Assembly: GCA_046757105.1 (NCBI GenBank)
Contig: JBHHXQ010000051.1
Span: 1-12,796, forward strand
DNA: 12,796 nt
Direction of reading: 5' to 3'
Source: Candidatus Krumholzibacteriia bacterium
GTDB taxonomy: Bacteria > Krumholzibacteriota > Krumholzibacteriia > G020349025
The position numbers and the translations under genes are program-made. The number at the start of each line of letters is the position of its first letter. The stretch's first letter is position 1. Positions 1-12,610 of the stretch are shown piece after piece. The notes under the pieces are model-generated. The model was not told where the DNA came from. It searched no databases and was given only the letters and a program-made list of their open reading frames with translations.

Positions 1-1405
1 ACAGCTCGGTGTCCAGGAGGAGACCCGTCACGCCGATGACCGCATTCGCCGGGGTGCGGATCTCGTGGCTCATGGCAGTGAGGACCTCGGGCTTGGCACG
101 GCTGTGGGCGGGCACGGCCTCCTGGGCGTCCGGGTGCGCCGCCGCGGCCTTCTTCTGTTCGGTGATGTCCGTCATGTAGATGCGAAGTTTCCGACCGGCG
201 GGGCTGACGTGGATCTTCTGGACGAAGACGTGTTCCCCGCAAGCGACTTCCCGGCTGATCGGGTTCGAACCCTCTGCGAGCTGCTGCTGCGCCAAGGGCC
301 AAGCGTCCTGCAGCACCGGGTGCTCCGCCCCGAGTCGCTCGAGATCCGGCAGCGCCACGGTGGCCGCGGGGTTCACGTAGGACAGCTCCCCCGACTGGTC
401 CATCTCGACGATCGGGTTGGGATCCTGCTTCGGGAACGATGCCAGCCGCGCCAGCTCGGCCTCGGCCTCCTTCCGATTCGTGATGTCGCGGGCCACCGCA
501 TGGATCCGCTGCTCCGAGGCAGCGGACACTGCCTTCCACTCCAGCCACCTGTACGACCCGTCCTGGCAGCGGAAGCGGTTCTCGAAGTCCGTCTCCTCGC
601 CCGACTCGAGCCTCAGCAGCGCACCCTGCGTACGTTCCAGATCCTGCTCGTGTACGTACTCCGTGAAAGGCCTTGCGAGCAGCTCCTCTTCGCGGTAGCC
701 CAAGACGCGTTCGAAGGCCGGATTGATGCGCTCGAACAACCCGCCGAAGTCGACGACGCACACCATGTCCACCGATGGCCAGAAGAGCCGGTCACGTTCT
801 GCATGCGCCCGCACCCGCTCGGTGACGTCGAAGAACACGAGGACGGACCCGCGGAGCTTGCCGTCCTCGACCATCGCGTTCAATCCGAACGAGACCGGGA
901 TCGTCGTGCCGTCCCGCCTGCGGAACTCGGCCGACTCGCTGCGGACCATCGTCCCCGCTTCCAGCACTTCGCGAAGCGAATCGCGGTCCGCGAGGCTGTC
1001 GTGTGACGCAGCGGGGTTCACCACTCGTGCGATGAAATCCTGCCCGCCGAGCTCCTTTTCGCGCCGGCCCAGAATGCGTTCGGCCTCCGGATTCATCGAA
1101 ACGAGCCCACCGTTCTCGTCCAGAGTGCACAGGCCGGCTCCCAGCGAGCTGATGACGGAACGAAGCTGGTTGCGTTCCAGCGTGATGCGGGCCTCCGAGG
1201 ATTGGCGCAGATTCTCGCAGAGCTCCTGCATCTCGCGCGAGGAGACCGTCAGGGAGCGCTCCAGCACATGGCGCTCTTGCGAGCCATCGGCGTAGGCGCG
1301 GCTGACGCACTGCAGGAACTGCTGCCACGTCGCAGCATCCGGAGGAAGATTCCGCTCCTCGAGACCCAGCCTCTTCAGCTGGTGCTGCAGCAACCGGTGG
1401 AACAC
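1..1405 (-). CDS. Multi-PAS sensor histidine kinase, partial: C-terminal kinase core continues beyond the window start
   Basis: Reverse-strand translation in the frame of codon 71-73 gives the HisKA H-box '...VLTAMSHEIRTPANAVIGVTGLLLDTEL' at the window start. Upstream in the same frame are three PAS-like blocks: 'ERNQLRSVISSLGAGLCTLDENGGLVSMNPEAERILG...FRRRDGTTIPVSFGLNAMVEDGKLRGSVLVFFDVTERVRAHAERDRLF', 'VCVVDFGGLFERINPAFERVLGYREEEL...FRCQDGSYRWLEWKAVSAASEQRIHAVARDITNRKEAE' and a PAS_4-like 'NPIVEMDQSGELSYVNPAA...RIYMTDITEQKKA'. An in-frame TAG lies at 1409-1411. GTG at 1405 (minus) is preceded by a GCGAGG Shine-Dalgarno-like sequence; the first in-frame ATG is at 1231. Not in the ORF track because the reading frame runs off the window edge. 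Confidence 0.85.
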   Translation of the reverse strand, partial: MFHRLLQHQLKRLGLEERNLPPDAATWQQFLQCVSRAYADGSQERHVLERSLTVSSREMQELCENLRQSSEARITLERNQLRSVISSLGAGLCTLDENGGLVSMNPEAERILGRREKELGGQDFIARVVNPAASHDSLADRDSLREVLEAGTMVRSESAEFRRRDGTTIPVSFGLNAMVEDGKLRGSVLVFFDVTERVRAHAERDRLFWPSVDMVCVVDFGGLFERINPAFERVLGYREEELLARPFTEYVHEQDLERTQGALLRLESGEETDFENRFRCQDGSYRWLEWKAVSAASEQRIHAVARDITNRKEAEAELARLASFPKQDPNPIVEMDQSGELSYVNPAATVALPDLERLGAEHPVLQDAWPLAQQQLAEGSNPISREVACGEHVFVQKIHVSPAGRKLRIYMTDITEQKKAAAAHPDAQEAVPAHSRAKPEVLTAMSHEIRTPANAVIGVTGLLLDTEL

Positions 1406-1940: not shown

Positions 1941-2580
1941 TCATCCCGGGACGTCGTTCAGCAGTTCGACGAAATCGAGCGCCGGCTTCGGGGCGCAGCC
2001 CTCGTGCTTGAAGAAGACGAAGACGTCTTCCCACGGATGCGCTCGACCCAGGCGCGGAGATCGTCCGTGCCGTACTCGTCCCGCCGCATGCGCAGATAGC
2101 CGAACCGCGCGGTCGGGACCAGCGGCACCTCGTCCTTGCTGTCGTCGTCCACGATGCAAAGCGCCACACCGTTCGCTCGCAGCGTCTCGTAGACCTCGTC
2201 ATGCTGCCAGGACGGCTCGCGGAACTCGAGCACGGGCCGGCACCGCGGCGGCAGCTGGAAGAGGACCGGTCCGAGCCGGTCACCGAGCACCAGAAGGTTG
2301 CCGAAAAGGTACTCGAGCTCGCCACCCACGTCCCTCAGCCGCTTGAGTGCGTGATCCGCCGCGATGCCTTCACGACGAAACGGAAGTCCTCGGGGACGTC
2401 TGCTGCCCAGCTCGCCAATACCTTCTTCGACGGCATGCGATAGAACGTATTGTTGCTTTCGACCGTATGGAGCCTCTGCGCGTAGAAACGCAGCCACCCG
2501 GAGGCGGCGAGCTCTCGCGGATAGAACCCGGGGCTCCACTGCCTGTAGGAGTAGCCGCTCATTCCGGCATGGATGCGCAT
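1941..2580 (-). pseudogene. DUF72 (UPF0759, YecE-like) family gene disrupted by two frameshifts, or carrying two indel errors
   Basis: The N-terminal piece (2580->2335) reads 'MRIHAGMSGYSYRQWSPGFYPRELAASGWLRFYAQRLHTVESNNTFYRMPSKKVLASWAADVPEDFRFVVKASRRITH', matching the DUF72 N-terminal signature. The middle piece lies in a second frame (inside ORF 1958..2623): '...ALKRLRDVGGELEYLFGNLLVLGDRLGPVLFQLPP...EFREPSWQHDEVYETLRANGVALCIVDDD...FGYLRMRRDEYGTDDLRAWVERIR'. The C-terminal piece lies in a third frame (ORF 1941..2159): 'WEDVFVFFKHEGCAPKPALDFVELLNDVPG*'. The frame changes fall near 2340-2350 and near 2040-2050. The second fits a single-G loss in a G-run ('cgtggg|aagac'). Confidence 0.6.
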
Positions 2581-2697: not shown

Positions 2698-3696
2698 CTA
2701 CGCCGTCGCGCACTCCGGGAGCAGATGCTTCACACCGATGCCGCGCAGCATCCGGTAGGTTGCGCGTAGCTCATCCTGACGCATGAGCTGCGGGTGGTCC
2801 GGGATGCTCCCGGCTTCGACCCAGCGAGGCGGGAAGAAAGCGACCCCCTGGATCAGAGGATAAGGCTCCAGGCCGAGGCTCCGGAAGAACGGGTTCATGA
2901 TGCGCAGGATCTCGTTGCGGCCGCCGTTCAGGAACCGGATGATGTCCACGGCTTGCGGCTTGGCCCACTTCCCGAGGACGTACGTCCGCTGCGGATCCGG
3001 CGCCGCATTGTTGGGCTCGTAGAAGAGCTCGAACACGTCCTGAAGCATGTGGCTGACCTCGGAGGCCCAGTCCAGCCTGCAGCGGATCTGCGTACCCAGG
3101 AACCTCTTGGGAACTCCATCCACATCCTTCAACGGAATCCCGTTGTCGGTGGTGGGCACTCCGGTCGCCAGCGCGAAGCGGTAGCGGTCCTGAGCATCCT
3201 TGAAGCCTTTGGCTTCGATGTAGCCGATCCGCGTGAGCCACGCCGGGCGGTCGAACAGTGGATAGATCGCGCGAACGGCGCGCTCATCCATCTCGCTCAG
3301 CTGACATGGGACGCGGATGAAGCGGTACGGCGCCCGGGTCACCGTCATGACCAGGCCCTCCTCGTCCGACGGCAGGCTGGCGAGACGGGCCCGGAGCTCG
3401 TGGACGCGGGTCTGGACGTCCTCGGTCAGCGCCTTCTTCAGGAGGTCGGCCAACCCCACCGCGTGCGACCTCTTGAGCTGCACCCCGTTCTCGGGCGAAC
3501 GATCGATCTTCTGCACGAGCACGAGGAGCGCCATGCCGCGACGCCCGCTCTCCTCGAGATCTGCGGCGACCCGTCGCAGCTGATCCGCGGTCTTCGGCTG
3601 CAACACCTCCCTGATTCTCGGTGCGCGCCGGAGCAGCGCTTGGATGCGCGCCAGAATCCGGGCGTCCTCGGGGAACAGCTCCTTCGCCAGAGTCAT
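2698..3696 (-). CDS. Hypothetical protein, ~332 aa if started at 3696, extensible to ATG 3870 (~390 aa); no domain recognised
   Basis: This is the C-terminal, protein-like part of the 1015-aa minus-strand ORF 2698..5745; the rest of that ORF is antisense to the + strand operon. From 'MTLAKELFPEDARILARIQALLRRAPRIREV...' onward third-codon positions are G/C-rich like the neighbouring genes. GGTGGGG lies 7-8 nt upstream of ATG 3696. The upstream in-frame stretch 3697-3870 ('MNPYIDASASCVLVTNRSNW...') uses many A/T-ending codons and has no Shine-Dalgarno sequence, so it may be non-coding. Stop TAG at 2698-2700. Confidence 0.5.
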   Translation of the reverse strand: MTLAKELFPEDARILARIQALLRRAPRIREVLQPKTADQLRRVAADLEESGRRGMALLVLVQKIDRSPENGVQLKRSHAVGLADLLKKALTEDVQTRVHELRARLASLPSDEEGLVMTVTRAPYRFIRVPCQLSEMDERAVRAIYPLFDRPAWLTRIGYIEAKGFKDAQDRYRFALATGVPTTDNGIPLKDVDGVPKRFLGTQIRCRLDWASEVSHMLQDVFELFYEPNNAAPDPQRTYVLGKWAKPQAVDIIRFLNGGRNEILRIMNPFFRSLGLEPYPLIQGVAFFPPRWVEAGSIPDHPQLMRQDELRATYRMLRGIGVKHLLPECATA

Positions 3697-4214
3697 CGGT
3701 GTCACCCCACCGGGATTCTCACTTGAAAGAAAGAGCAGCTTCTTGCACGTAGTACTGATCCTGTCACCGAGTTGAGACAAGAAATCCACGGGTTCCACCC
3801 CCCCGAGGCGCCAGTTCGACCTGTTGGTCACGAGAACGCACGAGGCAGAAGCATCGATGTAGGGATTCATGCGCGGGCCACGCAGTTCTTTGTAGCACCA
3901 GCTCGTCTCTGGTGGAAAGCGATTTTTCTCCGTGTCCAGCGCGACCCTGCGACACGCAGAAGCTCCTTGCGAGCCACGAGCACGCCACGCCGCGACAACC
4001 GCAAGCACCCGGCGCGAACTCCCGACAAACCGCGCAGTGTTTCCTCGGACACGTACCAGTCTGAGACACCGCCCCCCTCGGATCCCCGGTTCCTGCGGCG
4101 TTCTGAATCCAAAATGAAATCGCCGCCGACATGCGTCCCGCGTGCGACGATTCCGGCGCACGAACGAGCTGCGGCAACCGCAGACGAATCCAACCGCAAG
4201 CGAGGAGGTGTCCG

Positions 4215-4442
4215 ATGTCGGAAACCCAGGTGAAGACAGCGCGCGTCTCGGTTCTCTCCGAAGGCGAGTACGAAGTTCCCGTGCCGTCCGGGAGACCGAT
4301 GAAGCTGTCCGCGCTGCTGGACGAGCTGGGGCTCGCGAACAGGGGCGGCCAGCTCTACATGGACGGAGCCCCGGTATCTGGCAACGCCACGGTGAAGCCG
4401 GGAAGCGAAACCGTGGTGCTCCCGCACATCCGCGGGGGCTAG
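4215..4442 (+). CDS. ThiS/MoaD-like beta-grasp (ubiquitin-like) small protein with C-terminal Gly-Gly
   Basis: ATG 4215 is preceded by AGGAGG at 4204-4209 (5-nt spacer). The 75-aa product is 'MSETQVKTARVSVLSEGEYEVPVPSGRPMKLSALLDELGLANRGGQLYMDGAPVSGNATVKPGSETVVLPHIRGG*'. This follows the ThiS/MoaD pattern (xLSALLDELGL...DGAPV...PGSETVVLP..GG) with GG immediately before the stop. It is the first gene of an operon that ends with an E1-like enzyme. Confidence 0.75.
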   Translation: MSETQVKTARVSVLSEGEYEVPVPSGRPMKLSALLDELGLANRGGQLYMDGAPVSGNATVKPGSETVVLPHIRGG

Positions 4443-4455
4443 CCGATCCACGACG

Positions 4456-4488
4456 GTGCGGGGGCCGCGCGCCGCGGCTGCCCGCACC
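4456..4488 (+). promoter_or_regulatory. Stable intra-operon hairpin immediately after the Ubl gene (possible attenuator/partial terminator or processing site)
   Basis: 'ggtgcggg' (4456-4463) pairs with 'cccgcacc' (4481-4488). The intervening 'ggccgcgcgccgcggctg' is itself near-palindromic. It begins 14 nt after the Ubl stop codon, within the 112-bp gap before gene 2. Confidence 0.3.
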
Positions 4489-4554
4489 GGTCTCGAGATG
4501 CCAGCTGCGCCCGTTCTTCCGGGTGCCGCGCACCTGCTTCCAGGGGGAAAGCCC

Positions 4555-5127
4555 ATGTTCGACCTCGTCGTGAGCCAGAGCGCCCCGCCGGCGCACGTGC
4601 GGCATCGGGCCGTCGCGCTCCTGGCCGGTGTGCTGGCGACACAGGCGGCGCTGGCCTACGCGGACGTACGGCGCCGCCGAGACTATCTCCTCTCGGAGAT
4701 CGCAAGCGGTTCTCAGAACCACCTCAGGATCCTGGACGTCGATCTGCAACGGGCCGAGTCGCTTCTCGATGCGCTCGAGCACATCGCCCACCACCCCGAA
4801 TCGGAGGCGTCGGCCCGGCTGCGACCCCTCCTGCAGCTGGTGGGTGGCCCGGTGCAGACGATCGAGCTCGCCACCGACCGGCTCGGCGCGCGCGTGACAC
4901 CCAGCCATGCCCGCGACCGCAACCTCCGCATCCTGCTTCTTCCCGAGGGGGCGCGCCGCCGGCGCGTGCAGATCCAGGACCTGGACCGGGTCGACCCGCA
5001 AACGCTGCGCAATGCCGCGCCGCGCTGCTATGGCGAGCTCGGCCACTCGTACATCGCCTGGGCGCTCAACCGTTTGGACATGCGCTCGCTCGTCCTCATC
5101 GCGTTGGCGTACCTGAGGGTCAACTGA
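4555..5127 (+). CDS. Hypothetical protein (~190 aa), second gene of the Ubl-E1 operon; function unknown
   Basis: ORF 4456..5127 frame. ATG 4555 follows GGGGGAAAG (Shine-Dalgarno-like, 3-nt spacer). The product begins 'MFDLVVSQSAPPAHVRHRAVALLAGVLATQAALAYADVRRRRDYLLSEI...'. Same strand as the Ubl gene, 112 bp downstream of it. No recognisable catalytic motif. The start could be further upstream (GTG 4456, ATG 4498) but that would overlap a strong hairpin. Confidence 0.5.
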   Translation: MFDLVVSQSAPPAHVRHRAVALLAGVLATQAALAYADVRRRRDYLLSEIASGSQNHLRILDVDLQRAESLLDALEHIAHHPESEASARLRPLLQLVGGPVQTIELATDRLGARVTPSHARDRNLRILLLPEGARRRRVQIQDLDRVDPQTLRNAAPRCYGELGHSYIAWALNRLDMRSLVLIALAYLRVN

Positions 5128-5239
5128 GAAACCGGGGGCACGCCACCGCGGACGCCGGCGGCGCTCGCAACGACGAGCTGCGACACCCGCCTCGCCCCGC
5201 AGGACGCGCGTCATCCCCCAGTCCCGTGGAGGTCGCCTC

Positions 5240-6085
5240 ATGCTGCGGCGCTGGAACGAGTTCCTCCGGACACTGAACATCCGGGGACATCTCTTCGACC
5301 AGGACGGCCCGTACTCGATCATGCTCGGGAGCCGGCTCCTCAACCGCTCCATCTTCGCCCTGCGGACGGCCATATTCGGCGCCTGCATGGCGGCTCGCGA
5401 GACGTTGCGCAGCGCCGGCGACGTCCGCGAGCCAATGCTCATCGCCGATCCCGGCGCGGCGCGGCGCGCCTTCGAGAATGTGCAACGGGAGGGCGACCTG
5501 CTGCTGCTCGAGGATCTCCTGGAGGTCTTCCTCCCCACCGCGCTCCTGTACGAGACGGGATCCCCGCACGGCGAGACCGTGACGGTCGGGTTCCGCGACG
5601 AGGCCGCTCCCAACAAGATCCTGAAGGGACTGACCGCCGCCGGAGAGGTCGAGGATCCGCACAGGTACCGGGCGATGGGCGACGTCTTGCTCGTCCCTCC
5701 GGCCGTTCGCGGCGAAGGCCGCAAGCGCGGCCACTGGATCCGCACCTGCCAGCTCGACCCACCGCTGTGGAGCGAGCACGGCGGCCCCTACTGGCGGCTC
5801 GGCCAGTGGAACCTCTGGCGGCTCGACGTGCTCGGTTGGCACGAGCGTCTGGCGCTGGCCGCGCTGGTCGGGACGTCCGCCGAGGCCGCCGTCGTTCTCG
5901 GGCCGCCGAACCTGTTCCCGCACATCGGCTTCGTCGCCGAGGTCGCCCGCGAGATGGGACGCACGCTGATCGGTGTGCCGTTCGAGGCATGCCCGCCGGA
6001 GCTCCGGCTGGATCTGGAAGAGGCACGCCGGCGCAGTCTGTCGAGCGTGCAGCGCATGTTCAGGTTGTTCGAGGGGGTCATCTGA
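5240..6085 (+). CDS. Hypothetical protein (281 aa), third gene of the Ubl-E1 operon; tentative UBC/E2-like active-site motif around Cys170
   Basis: ATG 5240 is preceded by GGAGG at 5227-5231 (8-nt spacer). Stop TGA at 6083-6085. The segment 'DVLLVPPAVRGEGRKRGHWIRTCQLDPPLWSEHGG' loosely resembles the E2 'PP...HPN...G.ICLDIL...WSP' active-site region. This is pattern-level resemblance only. Confidence 0.6.
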   Translation: MLRRWNEFLRTLNIRGHLFDQDGPYSIMLGSRLLNRSIFALRTAIFGACMAARETLRSAGDVREPMLIADPGAARRAFENVQREGDLLLLEDLLEVFLPTALLYETGSPHGETVTVGFRDEAAPNKILKGLTAAGEVEDPHRYRAMGDVLLVPPAVRGEGRKRGHWIRTCQLDPPLWSEHGGPYWRLGQWNLWRLDVLGWHERLALAALVGTSAEAAVVLGPPNLFPHIGFVAEVAREMGRTLIGVPFEACPPELRLDLEEARRRSLSSVQRMFRLFEGVI

Positions 6086-6152
6086 TGCAACGCCCTGGCA
6101 GCCACGAAGCCATCCCCGGTCCCGGCGGTGATGCCGCCTTCCCGGGCTTCGG

Positions 6153-6812
6153 GTGGATGGAATCGAGAGCGACGTGCTGCGGCTCGAGGATGTCGAAGTG
6201 ACGCTGGTGGGCGCCGGGCGCGCCGGGAGCCAGATCGCACTCGTGCTCGCTCAGCTCGGCGTGCGGCAGCGCATCTACGACGGCGACCGCCTCGGGCCGG
6301 AGAACCAGGGACTGCAGCTCTACCGCAAGGAGGACGTGACGGCCGGGAAGCAGAAGGTCGAAGCGCTCCGGGAGCACATCGGCTCCATCGTGCCCGAGAG
6401 CTGCATCGAAGTGCACGCAGAGGCCTTCGAGGCGCGCGAGGACCAGCGACGCTCACCGGTCGTGGTGATTGCGGTCGACACGATGGAGACGCGGCGTCGC
6501 CTCTGGGAGCGCCTCAAGAACGCCAAGGGCATCCTGCGGCTCCTGGACGTGCGGCTCGGCCGCGCCCTCGTGCGCCTGCACGAGGTGCGGCCGTCGCACC
6601 CGCAGGACGTCGCCGACTACGAGGCTTCGTTGCACGACGACGCGGTGGCTGCGGCGGCCGACTGTGCCGATGAAGCCACGACGCACGCGGCGGCCGCGGC
6701 TGCGGCTCTCGTCGGAGGCGCTCTGCGGGGCCTCGTCGACGACCTGCCGCGGCCGCGCTGGATCGCGCTCGACCTCGACCGGGCGATCTGGGCGAGCGGC
6801 AAGACGACGTAG
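6153..6812 (+). CDS. Minimal ThiF/MoeB/E1-like adenylyltransferase (219 aa)
   Basis: The product begins 'MDGIESDVLRLEDVEVTLVGAGRAGSQIALVLAQLGVRQRIYDGDRLGPENQGLQLYRKEDVTAGKQKVEALREHIGSIVPESCIEVHAEAF...VVVIAVDTMETRRRLWERL'. This is a Rossmann GxGxxG, followed by the acidic D.D, the N.Q/R/K ATP-phosphate region, and the 'AVDT' Mg-site Asp in E1-family order and spacing. No CxxC zinc pairs and no rhodanese domain are present. A single late Cys sits in 'AADCADEA'. GTG 6153 is the first start after in-frame TGA at 6129; the Shine-Dalgarno sequence is weak. Stop TAG at 6810-6812. Confidence 0.8.
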   Translation: MDGIESDVLRLEDVEVTLVGAGRAGSQIALVLAQLGVRQRIYDGDRLGPENQGLQLYRKEDVTAGKQKVEALREHIGSIVPESCIEVHAEAFEAREDQRRSPVVVIAVDTMETRRRLWERLKNAKGILRLLDVRLGRALVRLHEVRPSHPQDVADYEASLHDDAVAAAADCADEATTHAAAAAAALVGGALRGLVDDLPRPRWIALDLDRAIWASGKTT

Positions 6813-6822
6813 TCGGAGCCCG

Positions 6823-6860
6823 CCGCACGTGCGCGCAGCGCATCCCCAGGCGTTGCGCGC
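6823..6860. terminator. GC-rich hairpin(s) between convergent genes (E1-like + strand, peptidase - strand): candidate bidirectional terminator
   Basis: 10-bp perfect palindrome 'cgcacgtgcg' at 6823-6832. Then stem 'gcgcgcagcgc' (6831-6841), loop 'atccccag', stem 'gcgttgcgcgc' (6850-6860) gives 11 bp with one G.U. It lies in the 59-bp gap between stop codons at 6812 and 6872. No U-tract is present, which is common in high-GC genomes. Confidence 0.35.
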
Positions 6861-6871
6861 CCCGAGCCGCT

Positions 6872-8887
6872 CTACTGGAGCAACAGCATCTTCTTCGTGA
6901 AGCTCTGCGAATCCGTCTCGAGCCGGTAGAAGTACAGGCCTGAAGCGACCCGCTCACCGCGCTGGTCGACGCCGGTCCAGATGATCTCGTGTGTCCCGGC
7001 CACACGGCGCGTGTCCAGAAGAGTTCGAACCAGGGACCCCCTTGCATCGTAGATCTGCACGAGGACTTCGGACGGCCGCGCGAGGCCGAACCGTATGCGT
7101 GTGAGCGGATTGAACGGATTCGGACGGTTCTGCTCCAGGTAGGTGATCCAGGGTATGCTCTCGGTTCCGGTCGCGTACTCCGTGACGTCGCAGAGAATCC
7201 AGTGGCCGGGATCGAACTCGACACCCGTGACCGGATCGTCCAGCTCGACGAGAAACGCCTCGGTACGATCACCGACCCACAAGAGCGTGTCGATCTGCTG
7301 AACCGTAGTCGTGATCCGGAAGTCCACCGGCATCGTGTAGAGCTCCGCCTGCAGCTGGTCGATCACCAGACTCAAGTTCGTCTTGCCTTGCCAGGGATAG
7401 GAGTGCCAGGTCCATCTGTACTGCAGGCGATCCTCTCGGGTGAGCCATTCGTCGAAGAACCAGTCCAGTGGCGCGCCGTAGACGTCCTCGCAGACCCCCT
7501 CGAAGTCGTCGGTGCCGGCCATGCCGAAACGGAAGCGGGGATCGGCCACGTAGCTCTGCAAGATCTGGACGAACGAGCCGTCGCCGACGATGTGGCGGAG
7601 CATGTGCAGGACCCAGGCCGCCTTGTTGTAGACGACGTTGTCGAAGTAGTACCAGCGATCGGTCGCGTCCGGGTCCCGGAGGATCGGCCCCTGCCATTGG
7701 CCGGGCCGGTCTTTGCCCTCCATGTACGACCTGAGCTTCCCGGCGCCCTCCAGGTGCTCGAACCACAGCGCCTCGGCGTAGCTCGCGAATCCTTCATTCA
7801 GCCAGATGTGCGTCCAATCCTTGCAGGTGATGAGATCGCCGAACCACATGTGGGCCAGCTCGTGGGCGAAGACCCAGTCATAGGAATGGTTTCCGGTGAC
7901 GAGGGCAGAGCCATAGCTCGTGAGGGTCTGGTGCTCCATGCCGCCGCCGAGGTTGCAGAGGGCCACACCATACTTCTCGTCGACGAAAGGGTAGGACCCG
8001 AACGTCGTAGAGAAGAAGTCGAGCATCGGCACGGTGACGTTGAAATCCTCCTCGGCCGCAGCGACCAGGTCGGGATAGACGTAGTGAGTCACGGCCATGG
8101 TTTCCCCTGGGGCGTGAACGAAGGAGTCGTCCAACCGCACGTATTCCGAGGCGGCGATCGACGCCAGGTACGTCGCCATGGGGTAGTTCTCCCGCCAGTG
8201 GAATCGCCTGTAGGGGACTCCCCAGCGCGTCACATCCTCAGATCCGAGATGATCCCCGTTCGAAGCGGCAAAGAGGACGGCGGGAACGGCGAGATACAGA
8301 TCGAAGGTGGCCTTGTCGTCCGGATAGTCCTTGCACGGCCACCACGACCTGGCGCTCCAAGGCTCGCTCAACGAGAAGATCACCGGCGTCCCTTGATGGG
8401 TTGCGAAGAACAGCCCGGGGGCGCTGGCCGATCCCGGATTGCCGCCGAAACCGATCTCGATCGCGATCGAGTCGCCATCGGCGAGACCGGCGGGCAGGTG
8501 GATCGAGACCAGATCGGCCGGGCGACTCCACGCGAGCGTATCGCCGCCGGCCACCGTCACGGATGAAACGGTCAGGACATCGTCGGCGTCCAGATCGATC
8601 GTGTGGAGGCTGTCCACGAGGCTCATCACGGTGGCTCTGACGTAGCCCTCGACCGCCTGGTTGCCGGGGTCGAATGCCAGATCGAGTTCGTAATGCAGCG
8701 CGTCGAAGAGCAGTTGCGTGGGCGTCGGGCTCGGCGCGAGAAGAGCCTCGTGTCCCGGTCGCAGCTTCGCCCTGGCGATCTCCATCTTCCGGAGGATGTC
8801 GCCGTGGACGTCCTCGAGTGGAGCCTGGGCGAAAAGGGGAGCCGAAAATGTCGAGATGAACAGGGCTGCCAGAAGTGCAGGTCTCAC
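6872..8887 (-). CDS. Secreted M1-family aminopeptidase (aminopeptidase N-like) with a C-terminal T9SS (Por) sorting domain
   Basis: 671-aa ORF. N-terminal signal peptide 'MRPALLAALFISTFSAPLFAQA'. 'GGMEH' exopeptidase motif. Zinc site 'HELAHMWFGD...WLNEGFASY' (HEXXH-18-E). C-terminal ~85 aa 'NRPNPFNPLTRIRFGLARPSEVLVQIYDARGSLVRTLLD...GTHEIIWTGVDQRGERVASGLYFYRLE...KKMLLLQ' matches the Por secretion C-terminal sorting domain pattern. GTG start at 8887 with GAGGA upstream. Confidence 0.9.
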   Translation of the reverse strand: MRPALLAALFISTFSAPLFAQAPLEDVHGDILRKMEIARAKLRPGHEALLAPSPTPTQLLFDALHYELDLAFDPGNQAVEGYVRATVMSLVDSLHTIDLDADDVLTVSSVTVAGGDTLAWSRPADLVSIHLPAGLADGDSIAIEIGFGGNPGSASAPGLFFATHQGTPVIFSLSEPWSARSWWPCKDYPDDKATFDLYLAVPAVLFAASNGDHLGSEDVTRWGVPYRRFHWRENYPMATYLASIAASEYVRLDDSFVHAPGETMAVTHYVYPDLVAAAEEDFNVTVPMLDFFSTTFGSYPFVDEKYGVALCNLGGGMEHQTLTSYGSALVTGNHSYDWVFAHELAHMWFGDLITCKDWTHIWLNEGFASYAEALWFEHLEGAGKLRSYMEGKDRPGQWQGPILRDPDATDRWYYFDNVVYNKAAWVLHMLRHIVGDGSFVQILQSYVADPRFRFGMAGTDDFEGVCEDVYGAPLDWFFDEWLTREDRLQYRWTWHSYPWQGKTNLSLVIDQLQAELYTMPVDFRITTTVQQIDTLLWVGDRTEAFLVELDDPVTGVEFDPGHWILCDVTEYATGTESIPWITYLEQNRPNPFNPLTRIRFGLARPSEVLVQIYDARGSLVRTLLDTRRVAGTHEIIWTGVDQRGERVASGLYFYRLETDSQSFTKKMLLLQ

Positions 8888-9340
8888 GGAGTGTTTCCTC
8901 GTCGTTCACCCGGGCGACAAGCATAGCACGGAAACCCGCGCCCCGCGCCGTTCACATCTCGCGTTTCGAATGGACATCCCATCTGGCCGCGGGTGGATCG
9001 AGCCCGACAGGACGCTTGCAGGTCATGGTGCAACCTGGTTTCCAGGATGGTGCGGGCAGGTCGCCGAAATGTCTGGGGCTTCCGGGACCACACCGGGGGG
9101 CTGGTTTCGCTTCTCCCCGGCGCTGCACGGCGGCAGCCGGAGAATGCCGGACCCCGGGCTCCCCGCCGGATCGGCCCGCAGGAGTGCCGAAAGCCGATCC
9201 GTGGGGGACCGGCTGTGCGTGGCACGACGCGGAGGCGCACCTCCAGCCCCATGTGACCTACCGGGAGCGCCCGGCGACCCCCAGAACCGCTTGATTCTGT
9301 GGCCGTTCCACGATGGCGCGGGGTACGGCCGGGAGCCAGG

Positions 9341-9390
9341 TTGACATGCAGGGCAGATTGTACTATTCAACTAGAAGAGTAGTATTCTAG
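9341..9390 (+). promoter_or_regulatory. Candidate promoter (TTGACA-17-TATTCA) plus overlapping palindromic operator CTAGAA-N8-TTCTAG upstream of the GntR gene
   Basis: TTGACA at 9341-9346. TATTCA at 9364-9369 after a 17-nt spacer. Inverted repeat ctagaa (9371-9376) and ttctag (9385-9390) sits in an unusually AT-rich patch 'gtactattcaactagaagagtagtattctagagc' immediately 5' of the GntR start. The geometry is typical of an autoregulated GntR operator. Confidence 0.35.
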
Positions 9391-9413
9391 AGCAGTGAGG
9401 GTCGGTGGAAGCC

Positions 9414-9791
9414 ATGGAATACCTCATCGACACGAAGAGCGGCGTTCCCTACTACCGCCAGATCATCGAGCAGGTGAAGTTCGCCATCGCCCGGGGCGAG
9501 CTGCAGCCGGGGGACCAGCTGCCGACCGTGCGACAGCTCGCCGTCGACCTTCGCATCAATCCGAACACCGTAATCCGCGCCTACAGAGAGCTGGAGATCG
9601 GCGGCGTCCTCGACACCCAGCAGGGGGCCGGGACGTTCGTCGGCCGGCACCGCCCCGAGATCGACCAGCTCGAGAGGCAGCGGATGCTCGACCAGATCCT
9701 GACCGAATTGTTGGCTCGCGCTTCCACCTACGGCTTCTCGTTGGAGGAAGTCCTGGAGGGGCTGCGCCAACACAAGGAGGCGTCGCCATGA
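9414..9791 (+). CDS. GntR-family (YtrA-like short form) transcriptional regulator
   Basis: 'MEYLIDTKSGVPYYRQIIEQVKFAIARGELQPGDQLPTVRQLAVDLRINPNTVIRAYRELEIGGVLDTQQGAGTFV' is a classic GntR winged-HTH, followed by a short ~50-aa helical tail. ATG 9414 is preferred, with GGTGGA 4 nt upstream. GTG 9405 is an alternative start. Stop TGA at 9789-9791 overlaps the downstream ATG (ATGA). Confidence 0.85.
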   Translation: MEYLIDTKSGVPYYRQIIEQVKFAIARGELQPGDQLPTVRQLAVDLRINPNTVIRAYRELEIGGVLDTQQGAGTFVGRHRPEIDQLERQRMLDQILTELLARASTYGFSLEEVLEGLRQHKEASP

Positions 9792-10930
9792 GATCCGAGT
9801 CCAAGACCGGCGCGATGGGAAAGGCCCTCCCGGGATTCTCCCTCGAGAAGTTCGCCCTCACCATGCGCGCCGATTACCGTTTCGCGCCCGTCAACGTGCT
9901 GATGCTGGTGGCGATCTTCCTGATCGGCCTGACCGTGCACCTGAACCTGCACCCCTTCAGCGTGCAGGCGGTCGTCCTGAGCCTCGGTTCGGCGCTGGCC
10001 CTTTCGGCGCTGTTGCGATTGACCCAGGTCTGGGAGGCCATGGTCGTTCTCGGAACCGCGGATGGCTTGATCACCTACCTCGTGCTGCGGCCGGGAAGCG
10101 AGGTGCTTCTGGTGACCATCGCCGTGGCTCTGCTGGTGGCCCCGTCGATCCAGATCGCCTATCAGTGGGAGCGTGCGGTGCTGCTGCGCTTCGGCAAGTT
10201 CAGGGGGTTGCGGCAGTCCGGCCTGTTCCTGGTGGTCCCGATCATCGACAAGGTGGCACAGTTCGTCGATCAGAGGATCCGGGTCACCGACTTCAGCGCC
10301 GAGACCACGCTGACCTCGGACACGGTTCCGGTGAACGTGGACGCCATCGCCTTCTGGATGGTCTGGGACGCCCAGAAGGCCGTGCTCGAGGTGGAGCACT
10401 TCGACCAGGCGGTGATCCTCTCGGCCCAGACCGCTCTGAGAAACGCCATCGGCAAGAACGCCCTCGCGGACCTGCTTTCCGAGCGCGATCGGCTCGGCCA
10501 CGAGATCCAGAAGGTCCTCGACGAGAAGACCAGCGCCTGGGGGATCACGACCGAGGCGGTGGAGATCCGGGACATCACCATCCCGAAGGGGCTCGAGGAC
10601 GCAATGTCGCGCCAGGCCCAAGCCGAGAGAGAGCGGCAGAGTCGCATCATCCTCGGTACGGCCGAGACCGAGATCGCCGAGAAATTCGCCCGCGCGTCGG
10701 AGTACTACCAGGATAACTCGGTGGCTTTGCACCTGAGGGCGATGAACATGGTCTTCGAAGGACTGCGGCAGAAGGGGTCGATGATCATCGTTCCCTCGAC
10801 CGCCGTCGAAACGATGGGCCTGGGAGCCCTCGGCGGCTTGACCGCCTTCGGCCGTGGCTCCGGGGAGACTCCCGAGAATCCCGGTCGACCGCACCGAGAC
10901 GACGATTCTCCGTCCGATCCGGAAGATTGA
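9788..10930 (+). CDS. SPFH/band-7 (stomatin/prohibitin-like) membrane protein
   Basis: In frame with ORF 9395..10930. N-terminal hydrophobic segments ('VNVLMLVAIFLIGLTV', 'VVLSLGSALALSALL', 'VLLVTIAVALLVAPSI') are followed by the SPFH core 'YQWERAVLLRFGKFRGLRQSGLFLVVPIIDKVAQFVDQRIRVTDF...VNVDAIAFWMVWDAQKAVLEVE...' and a coiled-coil 'QAQAERERQ'. Translationally coupled to the GntR gene. Confidence 0.85.
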   Translation: MRSESKTGAMGKALPGFSLEKFALTMRADYRFAPVNVLMLVAIFLIGLTVHLNLHPFSVQAVVLSLGSALALSALLRLTQVWEAMVVLGTADGLITYLVLRPGSEVLLVTIAVALLVAPSIQIAYQWERAVLLRFGKFRGLRQSGLFLVVPIIDKVAQFVDQRIRVTDFSAETTLTSDTVPVNVDAIAFWMVWDAQKAVLEVEHFDQAVILSAQTALRNAIGKNALADLLSERDRLGHEIQKVLDEKTSAWGITTEAVEIRDITIPKGLEDAMSRQAQAERERQSRIILGTAETEIAEKFARASEYYQDNSVALHLRAMNMVFEGLRQKGSMIIVPSTAVETMGLGALGGLTAFGRGSGETPENPGRPHRDDDSPSDPED

Positions 10931-11003: not shown

Positions 11004-12317
11004 CTACATCCTCTCCCGAAGGGAAGGCTGCAATACGAGGTGCAATCCGAAACCGATCTCGAGGTCTGCGAGCCCGACGGCTTCGTCATCGATGCCGACG
11101 TTCGCATCGAGCGCCACGACGGGATCGGGGAAGAATCGCAGTCCCATCGTGAACTCGAGCAGACTTTCGACGTCGACCTTCCCGGTGCTCGCGCCGAACG
11201 TGATCAGCGGTGACGAGCGAACCTCGGTCAGGAAGAACGTTTTGGGGTTGGCGGCGAAGTCCATGCCCAGCCCGAAGCTCGTGTGCACCAGCTTGTTCGG
11301 GAGCCCCGTCGCGAACTCGCCGCTGGGCGAGGAGAACCGGACCCCGTCGATCCTCATGTCGGTCGCATGCACAACCGCGTGCAGACGCGTTCGGCGCAGG
11401 GCGAGTGTCGCCGCGAGCCCTGCGGTGGTTTCGCGGTGTTCGTATGTGAGCTGATCTACCGGAATACCATCTTCACTGGTAAAGGGTCTGTTCGTGCTGA
11501 ATTGATTGTCGTCGGTCGCGGCGACATTGAACGCCACGTTCAGGCGCTCCTCGAGCTCGCGGCTCGCCCATGCGACCGGCACGCGGATGCGAAATCCGAT
11601 CAACGCCTCCGACTCTGGATCGATGATGTGCACGATCCGCGAGGAGGAAACGACAGCCTCACCGACTCCACCAAGCCCCAGGGAGACGACCCAACGTTCG
11701 TTGCGTTCGTCGTCGCTGAATCCGAATGACAGACCACCACCGGCATGCACTACAAGCGACGGAATGATGTCCCCTGTCGGCGAATCGAACAGGCGTGGTG
11801 GCAGGATCAAGGCCTTTGGACGAACCGTGAACGGTGGCTCGAAGCCAGAAGAGGACCCGGGTGCAGCCTGCTGCTGCACGCTTTCCTCCACGACAACGGG
11901 GATCACCGGAGCGACCTGGGCGGAAGCCGGGGTGAGGCTGCTTTCTGCTGTCGGCGCCGCTGCAACGCCAGCGCTGTCGAATGCGGCCACTTCGCCTGCG
12001 CGCTCCGTACTTCCCGCGCTCGCCGGGAGAGGGTGTGTACAAACCCCGGTCCCACACCTGATGCAGTAGCTCGCGTCCAGAGGGAGCAAGAGGCCACACC
12101 GCCAGCAGTACACCCCCTCCTTTGCAGCCGTCGGCTTGCCACACGCGTGGCAGTAGAATGCACCCTCCGGGTTGGTGGCGTCACAGTGCGCGCAAAGGAC
12201 TTCCGCGGCAGACGGAGCGTCGACGGACGGCGCGATCACAAACGCCAGAGCCAGCACGCAAGCGCTCGCCACGATCGATTGTCTTGTAGTGCACAGCGCG
12301 CCACGACCCGTCATCAT
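11004..12317 (-). CDS. Hypothetical exported/membrane-anchored protein with N-terminal double zinc-ribbon (2x CxxC...CxxC) and a beta-rich C-terminal domain
   Basis: ORF 11004..12323. ATG at 12317 has GGAGG 8 nt upstream; GTG 12323 is the alternative start. Hydrophobic segment 'SIVASACVLALAFVIAPSV'. First zinc ribbon 'CAHCDATNPEGAFYCHACG', second 'YCWRCGLLLPLDASYCIRCG'. An Ala/Pro/Ser-rich linker follows, then ~250 aa of alternating hydrophobic pattern. Stop TAG at 11004-11006. Confidence 0.65.
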   Translation of the reverse strand: MMTGRGALCTTRQSIVASACVLALAFVIAPSVDAPSAAEVLCAHCDATNPEGAFYCHACGKPTAAKEGVYCWRCGLLLPLDASYCIRCGTGVCTHPLPASAGSTERAGEVAAFDSAGVAAAPTAESSLTPASAQVAPVIPVVVEESVQQQAAPGSSSGFEPPFTVRPKALILPPRLFDSPTGDIIPSLVVHAGGGLSFGFSDDERNERWVVSLGLGGVGEAVVSSSRIVHIIDPESEALIGFRIRVPVAWASRELEERLNVAFNVAATDDNQFSTNRPFTSEDGIPVDQLTYEHRETTAGLAATLALRRTRLHAVVHATDMRIDGVRFSSPSGEFATGLPNKLVHTSFGLGMDFAANPKTFFLTEVRSSPLITFGASTGKVDVESLLEFTMGLRFFPDPVVALDANVGIDDEAVGLADLEIGFGLHLVLQPSLRERM

Positions 12318-12610
12318 GACCACAACCTCCTGGAAGGGTTTGATGCGCTTGAAAGTGTCGAGAGATGACGGGCCCTGTCAACCCACGGTGCACCGACAGA
12401 GCACCGACAGCCCCGGGCTCGCCGGACGCCATCCCAACGCGTTGCATGGCAACACGTTGCACCCCCAGCCCAGCCGAGGGATTCAAGGGGTCCGGTGCAC
12501 CGCGCAGGCCGTTCGGAGAACTGAAAGCCAGACCCCACCGAAGACAACGAGAGGGTTCCTCGTGACGCGGCAGGTGCGACCGGGTCCATGGCGCACCTCC
12601 TGTGCCCGCG

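Follow-up and report, generated by a model that had tools for sequence, protein, structure and literature searches.

A Gly-Gly-ended ubiquitin-like protein and a minimal ThiF-type E1 encoded with three orphan proteins in a conserved cassette of Krumholzibacteriota- and Latescibacterota-type contigs

The question raised by this locus is whether a small protein with a free C-terminal Gly-Gly, encoded together with an E1, serves as a protein modifier or as a carrier, and which partners it works with. The gene, designated gene B, lies at positions 4215 to 4442 (+) of the window, which is the whole stretch of DNA analysed here, a complete contig of 12,796 bp from a Candidatus Krumholzibacteriia metagenome-assembled genome. 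A preliminary description had read its product as a ThiS/MoaD-like beta-grasp protein, ready for adenylation by an E1 and expressed above the enzymes that follow it. Follow-up by homology searches, alignments and structural models supported this interpretation as a whole, and placed the gene in a cassette of five genes (A to E) that is, so far, a previously undescribed module of a ubiquitin-like protein (Ubl) and an E1 with three orphan partners.

Gene B and the family of its product

The open reading frame (ORF) at 4215-4442 (+) encodes a 75-residue protein, MSETQVKTARVSVLSEGEYEVPVPSGRPMKLSALLDELGLANRGGQLYMDGAPVSGNATVKPGSETVVLPHIRGG, exactly as quoted in the preliminary description. A TAG stop codon at 4440-4442 directly follows the Gly-Gly, so that the C-terminal end reads ...IRGG, and a ribosome-binding site, GAGGAGGT, is found 6 nt upstream of the gene, with AGGAGG at 4203-4208 (+). 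At the first, second and third codon positions its GC content is 0.69, 0.55 and 0.83, which is the signature of coding on the plus strand. Across seven orthologous Ubl genes the differences per codon position were 0.32, 0.22 and 0.50 for the first, second and third positions, respectively; since third positions change most and second positions least, the gene B frame is under purifying selection. A chance ORF was rejected as a reading of gene B.

A word-index search with Ubl matched only the protein itself. An exhaustive HMMER search of 1.84 billion cluster representatives recovered about 10 small relatives or clusters, each aligned through its last residue, and further orthologues came from loci that were found by way of the neighbouring genes. 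Four larger HMMER matches (P0022, P0026, P0029 and P0030) are repeat proteins and were discarded as spurious. Separately, a 275-residue protein (P0028) matched Ubl weakly (E-value 5e-6) and contains four tandem beta-grasp-like repeats, each ending in VLPKVGKNG; this protein may represent a poly-Ubl from a different family.

In order to place the family, profiles were compared with solved structures and with curated models. An hmmsearch of the Protein Data Bank (PDB) with the Ubl profile retrieved SAMP2 (4hrs, E-value 6.5e-4) and Pyrococcus PF1061 (1rws, E-value 3.3e-3), both aligned end to end with Gly-Gly on Gly-Gly, and hhalign gave 93% probability for SAMP2 (E-value 3e-7, 63 columns) and 90% for PF1061. 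The Pfam SAMP2 model matched 11 of 14 Ubl members (best E-value 7.7e-7) and ThiS matched six (best E-value 9.7e-6), while Ub-Mut7C matched a single member at an E-value of 0.022. No ubiquitin-family profile was listed for any of the 14 at E-values up to 1. The window Ubl taken alone falls below the curated cut-offs, scoring 15.8 bits against 22.5 for ThiS, 15.5 against 27 for Pfam SAMP2, and 15.5 against 70 for the NCBIfam SAMP2 model. Judged from these profiles, Ubl and its orthologues form a small, new family that falls within the ThiS/SAMP branch of beta-grasp proteins and not with ubiquitin proper, in agreement with the ThiS/MoaD-like character first proposed, and the closest known protein appears by sequence to be archaeal SAMP2.

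In an alignment of 14 Ubl sequences (A2), G74 and G75 are invariant and terminal. The Ubl genes of loci L014 to L017 all end in GG followed by a stop codon, and in total 18 of the 18 orthologues whose C-terminal end was seen terminate in GG with no extension. This, and the lack of any JAB or deubiquitinase (DUB) gene encoded nearby, bears out the earlier proposal that Ubl needs no processing before it meets an E1.

A conserved five-gene cassette

Gene A is transcribed divergently, on the minus strand, and is followed by genes B, C, D and E on the plus strand, an order that is the same in every contig reaching far enough. The cassette was seen in the window, in the closed Latescibacterota genome CP070763 (L001/L008), and at L002 to L004, L006, L009, L012/L013, L014 and L015, with partial views at L005/L010, L007, L011, L016 and L017. 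It was found only in a few metagenomic contigs of Krumholzibacteriota or Latescibacterota type. A profile search with protein D found two loci in genome contigs and four in metagenome contigs, and a profile scan of viral contigs and plasmids found no homologue of D.

The encoded proteins are of similar size throughout: 358 to 459 residues for orthologues of A, 74 to 82 for Ubl, 190 or 191 for C, 273 to 352 for D and 219 to 277 for E. The spacer between B and C is 110 to 190 nt long and contains a hairpin, and at several loci C, D and E have overlapping stop and start codons. A ThiF-family protein E is present in every locus and is the most conserved part of the cassette, with 66-74% identity to the window protein (alignment A6), followed by Ubl at 43-61% (A2), C at 39-61% (A5), A at 40-49% (A4) and D at 39-55% (A1).

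Genes A to E are considered a unit because the flanking genes differ between loci. A DUF72 gene lies beyond A in one subset only (the window, L001, L002, L009 and L012) and probably does not belong to the core. Following E on the same strand, two MacB/FtsX permease genes and an ABC ATPase gene are found at L005 (2457-5896), L006 (4686-7060), L009 (about 7600-9650), L014 (5305-9632), L015 (4993-6217) and L017 (2772-6259), where L005 and L017 appear to be near-copies of each other. In the window and L001/L002, E is followed by unrelated genes and the MacB exporter is absent. At L015 an extra 260-residue gene with a weak M50 peptidase match lies between E and the MacB genes.

Searches of Pfam, NCBIfam, PADLOC, PHROG and PDB sequences gave no match for A, C or D; PDB sequence-profile searches returned nothing below an E-value of 0.2 for these three proteins, and hhalign found no domain shared among them. 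No E2, JAB protease, RING, rhodanese or ThiG/MoaE-type partner was recognisable in the cassette or its neighbourhoods. Full-text literature searches found no description of the cassette.

Protein E, a minimal E1

The E1 that the preliminary description called for is encoded in the same operon, at 6153-6812 (+), and matches Pfam ThiF at 6.7e-15. Protein E is a single ThiF domain of 219 residues and has the makeup of a minimal ThiF-type E1 adenylyltransferase. The motif GxGxxG and the residues D43/D45, K68, D109 and R114 are conserved in the alignment, as is Cys171, which is invariant and lies within an acidic DDxxAAxxDCxD loop; from the corresponding residues of MoeB and ThiF, we take these to be the ATP/Mg2+ site and the crossover-loop cysteine. 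CxxC zinc motifs and a rhodanese domain are absent from E in the alignment.

The best NCBIfam models for E are those for short ThiF and PRTRC ThiF proteins, all far below cut-off. Scores were 52.5 against 159 for the ThiF equivalog, 25 against 449 for the MoeB equivalog and 19 against 450 for the UbaA model. In PADLOC, the match of E to the Cap2 models (E-value about 3e-10) is limited to their adenylation part. Its nearest solved relatives are UBA5, PaaA, TcdA and Cap2, with E-values of about 1e-4 over the N-terminal half only.

Proteins C, D and A

Protein C (gene at 4555-5127 (+), with an ATG at 4555) has 190 residues and 15 homologues, none with a Pfam domain. Its AlphaFold model is confident (pLDDT 89, pTM 0.85) and consists of three long helices, a four-stranded beta meander, a loop bearing a cysteine, and two helices. 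The cysteine, Cys158 in a PRCYG motif, is invariant across the 16 homologues. The order of helix, meander, Cys loop and helices recalls the UBC/RWD fold, and we put forward an E2-like role of C as a hypothesis rather than a finding. Foldseek with the C model gave no match to a solved fold, the best E-value being 0.43, to unspecified kinetochore KMN chains, and comparison with human UBE2D2 showed no relation.

The C-terminal end of C, ...AYL[R/N]xN, has a feature of its own: the terminal Asn190, encoded by the last codon at 5122-5124, is invariant in 16 of 16 homologues. MccB, the E1-like enzyme of microcin C, adenylates a C-terminal Asn, and its substrate MccA ends in Asn. By analogy, E might accept C as a further substrate besides Ubl.

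Protein D (gene at 5240-6085 (+)) has 281 residues and 14 homologues, again none with a Pfam domain. The conserved core is the C-terminal part, about residues 120-270. Its orthologues carry a hypervariable, low-complexity insertion of 0 to 70 residues after the N-terminal helices (about columns 77-150 of alignment A1, between residues 57 and 58 of the window protein), which is missing from D of the window. The invariant residues comprise Arg, Glu, Thr, Trp, Gly and Pro, with no invariant Cys, His or Ser. The AlphaFold model of D is also confident (pLDDT 84, pTM 0.85) and has no match among solved folds. One homologue of D (P0016) gave a marginal PADLOC match to BrxHI (E-value 0.0018).

Gene A (2698 to about 3870 (-)) was located by its minus-strand pattern of GC content at third codon positions (GC3) and belongs to no family that could be named. 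In the window it encodes about 340 to 390 residues, with an uncertain start at ATG 3870 or 3696. Orthologues lie divergently beside the Ubl gene at L001, L002, L006, L009, L012, L014 and L015, and their alignment (A4) has a mean column identity of 58%. As a side observation, the best PDB match of the gene A profile, over profile positions 188-278 of A4, was to a UBX protein of ubiquitin-like fold (6sap) at a non-significant E-value of 0.23.

Signals around the Ubl gene

The preliminary description had pointed to a strong Shine-Dalgarno (SD) sequence and a hairpin just downstream of the gene, and both were borne out. Pairing to a generic anti-SD sequence was calculated as -15.4 kcal/mol for B, -9.4 for C, -10.5 for D and -2.5 for E, giving Ubl the strongest SD of the operon, and orthologous Ubl genes ranged from -10 to -18 kcal/mol. 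The hairpin, at 4452-4492 (+), has an 18-bp GC-rich stem and a 3-nt loop and begins 10 nt past the Ubl stop codon. The first 60 nt past that stop have a folding energy of -34.7 kcal/mol, a value that ranks among the lowest 0.5% when every 60-nt window of the contig is considered. The position of the hairpin is conserved: at eight of 10 orthologous loci it falls within the lowest 0-7% of the locus's own windows, and at the remaining two it lies about 40 nt further downstream. The sequence of the 5' arm, CGGTGCGGG, is preserved along with that of its 3' partner in the window, L001, L002, L006, L014 and L017, of which L001 and L002 are near-identical. The hairpin has no U tract and was not called by an intrinsic-terminator scan; it is a candidate partial terminator or mRNA-stabilising element. 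The further claim that Ubl is expressed above the enzymes that follow fits the SD and the conserved hairpin, and has to be amended in one respect, as only one recognisable enzyme follows.

Scans for sigma-70 promoters and intrinsic terminators over 3600-7000 returned nothing. The region between A and B contains at 4036-4070 (+) a motif of the form GTGT-N8-GACACGTA-N11-GACAC. Arrangements of GTGTC, GACACGTA and GACAC, as an inverted plus a direct repeat, occur in the window, L001 (4506-4540), L002, L006 (1644-1678) and L014 (1917-1951), 167 to 357 nt upstream of the Ubl ATG, and the corresponding region of L016 has a palindrome, GACACGTGTC, with the motif position at about 170-190. From its sequence, the motif looks like a putative operator of divergent A and B promoters.

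Proposed mechanism and its alternatives

The finding that any reading must accommodate is that a Gly-Gly-ended Ubl of SAMP2/ThiS type and an E1 with intact active-site motifs are always encoded together. We favour a Ubl-E1 conjugation system whose partners are not known E2, JAB or DUF6527 parts, and give this reading an even chance. Ubl would be translated in mature form with a free C-terminal Gly-Gly, as the first and best-translated plus-strand gene of the cassette, and no maturation protease would be needed because the protein ends exactly in GG. The strong SD and the hairpin after the stop codon may make Ubl more abundant than the enzymes. Protein E would then bind Ubl and adenylate Gly75, as expected because this is established E1 chemistry; activation of Ubl by E is well supported. 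Cys171 of E would attack the acyl-adenylate to form a Ubl~E thioester, Ubl would be passed to Cys158 of C acting as a non-canonical E2-like carrier, and it would finally be ligated to a protein amine. In this scheme D, A or both might act as specificity factor, target, remover or regulator.

A stronger version, which we consider unlikely, holds that the cassette represents a fourth, mechanistically distinct bacterial Ubl class, in which C, without a recognisable UBC fold, is the thioester carrier, D, a protein of new fold, delivers, and the target is possibly A. If this were true, E2- and E3-like functions would have arisen on unrelated folds.

Several points weigh against conjugation. The beta-grasp fold of Ubl is assigned from sequence profiles, we infer every step after adenylation, and no JAB/DUB, RING or known target was found. 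Proteins of SAMP2/ThiS type are as often sulfur carriers as modifiers, and the MacB-type ABC exporter that follows the cassette in six loci suits a small-molecule product. The system is also rare, so that part of the conservation in gene order could stem from common descent in a single lineage.

The main alternative, which we regard as somewhat unlikely but a real possibility, is a system in which Ubl carries sulfur for an unknown thio-metabolite. Here E would adenylate Ubl, and an outside sulfur donor, or a persulfide on Cys158 or Cys171, would convert the C-terminal end to a thiocarboxylate; D, as a new enzyme, would place the sulfur into a small molecule, to be exported in many hosts by the adjacent MacB-type transporter. 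The nearest relatives of Ubl, ThiS and SAMP2, carry sulfur, and the short single-domain E1 scores best against sulfur-carrier ThiF models such as NF006395 and TIGR02354. The position of the MacB/FtsX and ABC ATPase genes directly downstream at L005, L006, L009, L014, L015 and L017 is in keeping with this route, as is the failure to find an E2 or DUB, and the invariant Arg, Glu, Thr and Trp of D would fit an enzyme that binds a substrate. The thioquinolobactin and PDTC siderophore clusters contain ThiS-like carriers together with an E1. However, the neighbourhoods shown contain no called gene for an enzyme that transfers sulfur or uses a thiocarboxylate, a point in favour of conjugation; in particular, rhodanese, cysteine desulfurase, ThiG, MoaE, CysM and TtuA-like genes were all missing from the called genes of the window, L001 to L007 and L014 to L017. 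The missing rhodanese domain of E also speaks against sulfur transfer, the transporter is not shared by the window and L001/L002, D matches no known thiocarboxylate-using fold, and the surroundings of the cassette show no further conserved biosynthetic genes.

It is also conceivable, if improbable, that tagging is independent of any E2 and resembles sampylation, as with SAMP/UbaA or Thermus TtuB/TtuC, so that E alone would transfer Ubl to lysines, and A, C and D would be targets, regulators or unrelated genes inherited together. SAMP and TtuB conjugation needs only an E1, the closest relatives of Ubl, both solved and by profile, are SAMP2, and no E2 fold was detected. On the other hand, C, D and E are tightly packed, with overlapping stop and start codons at several loci, and A to E are kept as a block while the flanks change, which speaks for C and D working jointly with E. 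Transfer by E alone would also leave the invariant Cys158 of C unexplained.

An anti-phage ubiquitination system of Bil, Bub or CBASS type is highly improbable, and membership in any of the three was rejected on gene content. The resemblance consists of the match of E to the PADLOC Cap2 'E1-E2' models and to solved Cap2, the sparse and patchy distribution of the family, and the hypervariable insertion of D. The Cap2 match, however, covers only the generic adenylation half of E; A, B, C and D have no significant PADLOC match, that of P0016 to BrxHI being marginal; and there is no recognisable E2, and no JAB, DUF6527 or CD-NTase. CapW and CapH/CapP regulators have been reported beside Bub operons (PMC11601596); they were not among the Pfam labels of the neighbours here, where no search aimed at them was made. 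The failure to find D homologues in viral contigs and plasmids, and the housekeeping-type neighbours, likewise argue against such a role. Finally, a conventional ThiS or MoaD role in making thiamine or molybdopterin, suggested by a weak Pfam ThiS match (E-value 0.021) and the ThiF-family neighbour, is barely credible and was rejected on gene content, since no thiG, thiH, thiC, thiE, moaE, moaA or moaC lies in any neighbourhood shown, E falls well short of the NCBIfam cut-offs for the ThiF and MoeB equivalogs, and about 10 clusters in 1.84 billion representatives is unlike a housekeeping cofactor gene.

Gene map of the contig

The GC content of the contig is 62-71%, and because it is so high, mechanical ORF lists are full of artefacts. 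The gene map was built instead from GC content by codon position and from family scans. ORF length says little at 67% GC, as two long antisense ORFs illustrate: those at 2698-5745 (-) (1015 amino acids) and 3867-4556 (-) (229 amino acids), which run across B, C and D, were rejected as high-GC artefacts. The first of these has the coding GC3 pattern only in its last 390 or so codons, which correspond to gene A.

On the left side of the cassette lie a partial PAS/HisKA sensor kinase gene (2-1300 (-)) and a frameshifted DUF72 gene (about 1962-2580 (-); Pfam DUF72 4e-17). The latter is split over three frames (2580-2347, 2347-2027 and 2045-1962) and has an 18-residue deletion relative to its orthologues, and is either a pseudogene or the product of an assembly error; the adjoining Ubl cassette is intact. 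On the right side, a gene for an M1-family aminopeptidase with a FlgD-Ig/type IX secretion C-terminal sorting domain (6872-8887 (-)) runs towards the E1 gene and does not recur beside the cassette at other loci. It is followed by a gene for an SPFH/Band 7 protein (within 9395-10930 (+)) and one for a double-zinc-ribbon protein (11004-12323 (-)). An Rfam scan of the window gave no match.

Significance and comparison with known systems

Pairs of a Ubl and an E1 are the root of ubiquitin signalling, and CBASS Cap2, Bil and Bub each showed unexpected chemistry. Here a mature SAMP2-like Ubl and a stripped-down E1 are joined to three families that have no relatives in the libraries searched. If C and D transfer and ligate Ubl, the steps after the E1 can be built from unrelated folds. 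If Ubl carries sulfur instead, D would represent a novel type of enzyme that uses a thiocarboxylate, and the exporter often found beside the cassette would hint at a secreted thio-compound not yet known. The cassette, of about 4 kb and intact in the closed genome CP070763, is directly testable in another host.

Several known systems share parts of this arrangement. Type II CBASS consists of a CD-NTase, the E1-E2 fusion Cap2 and the JAB protein Cap3, whereas no CD-NTase or JAB is present in the neighbourhood here. PaaA, like MccB an E1-like enzyme of peptide natural products, is among the nearest solved relatives of E (E-value 1.2e-4), and an exporter adjoins many of the loci; no precursor peptide was seen at the cassette, where the obvious substrate is a folded, 75-residue, Gly-Gly-ended beta-grasp protein and not a short peptide. 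As in ThiS-ThiF and MoaD-MoeB, a Gly-Gly-ended Ubl lies beside a ThiF-family adenylyltransferase with a loop Cys after the nucleotide-binding domain, but here there is no ThiG/MoaE-type acceptor and no sulfur donor nearby, and the family is very rare.

The Bil (BilABCD) system combines an E2 of UBC fold with a JAB peptidase and an E1 of three domains, and Bub has E2 fusions and a DUF6527 serine protease (PMC11601596). Like these, the cassette combines genes for a Ubl, an E1 and two or three other proteins in one operon, Ubl may plausibly be in excess, and Bil and Bub set a precedent for very diverged bacterial E2-like parts. The JAB of Bil was not detected here, E is one ThiF domain of 219 to 253 residues in contrast to the three-domain E1 of Bil, and neither the DUF6527 protein nor the E2/E1 fusions of Bub were detected in any cassette protein.

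SAMP2 of Haloferax volcanii and PF1061 of Pyrococcus are likewise beta-grasp proteins of 66 to 77 residues that end in GG with no extension, and SAMP2/UbaA likewise relies on a single-domain ThiF-type E1 with no recognisable E2. The cassette described here differs in its bacterial host, in its fixed operon with three orphan proteins, and in an E1 without the CxxC zinc site. The closest systems are thus SAMP/UbaA and ThiS/ThiF by components, and Bil and Bub as multi-gene Ubl operons.

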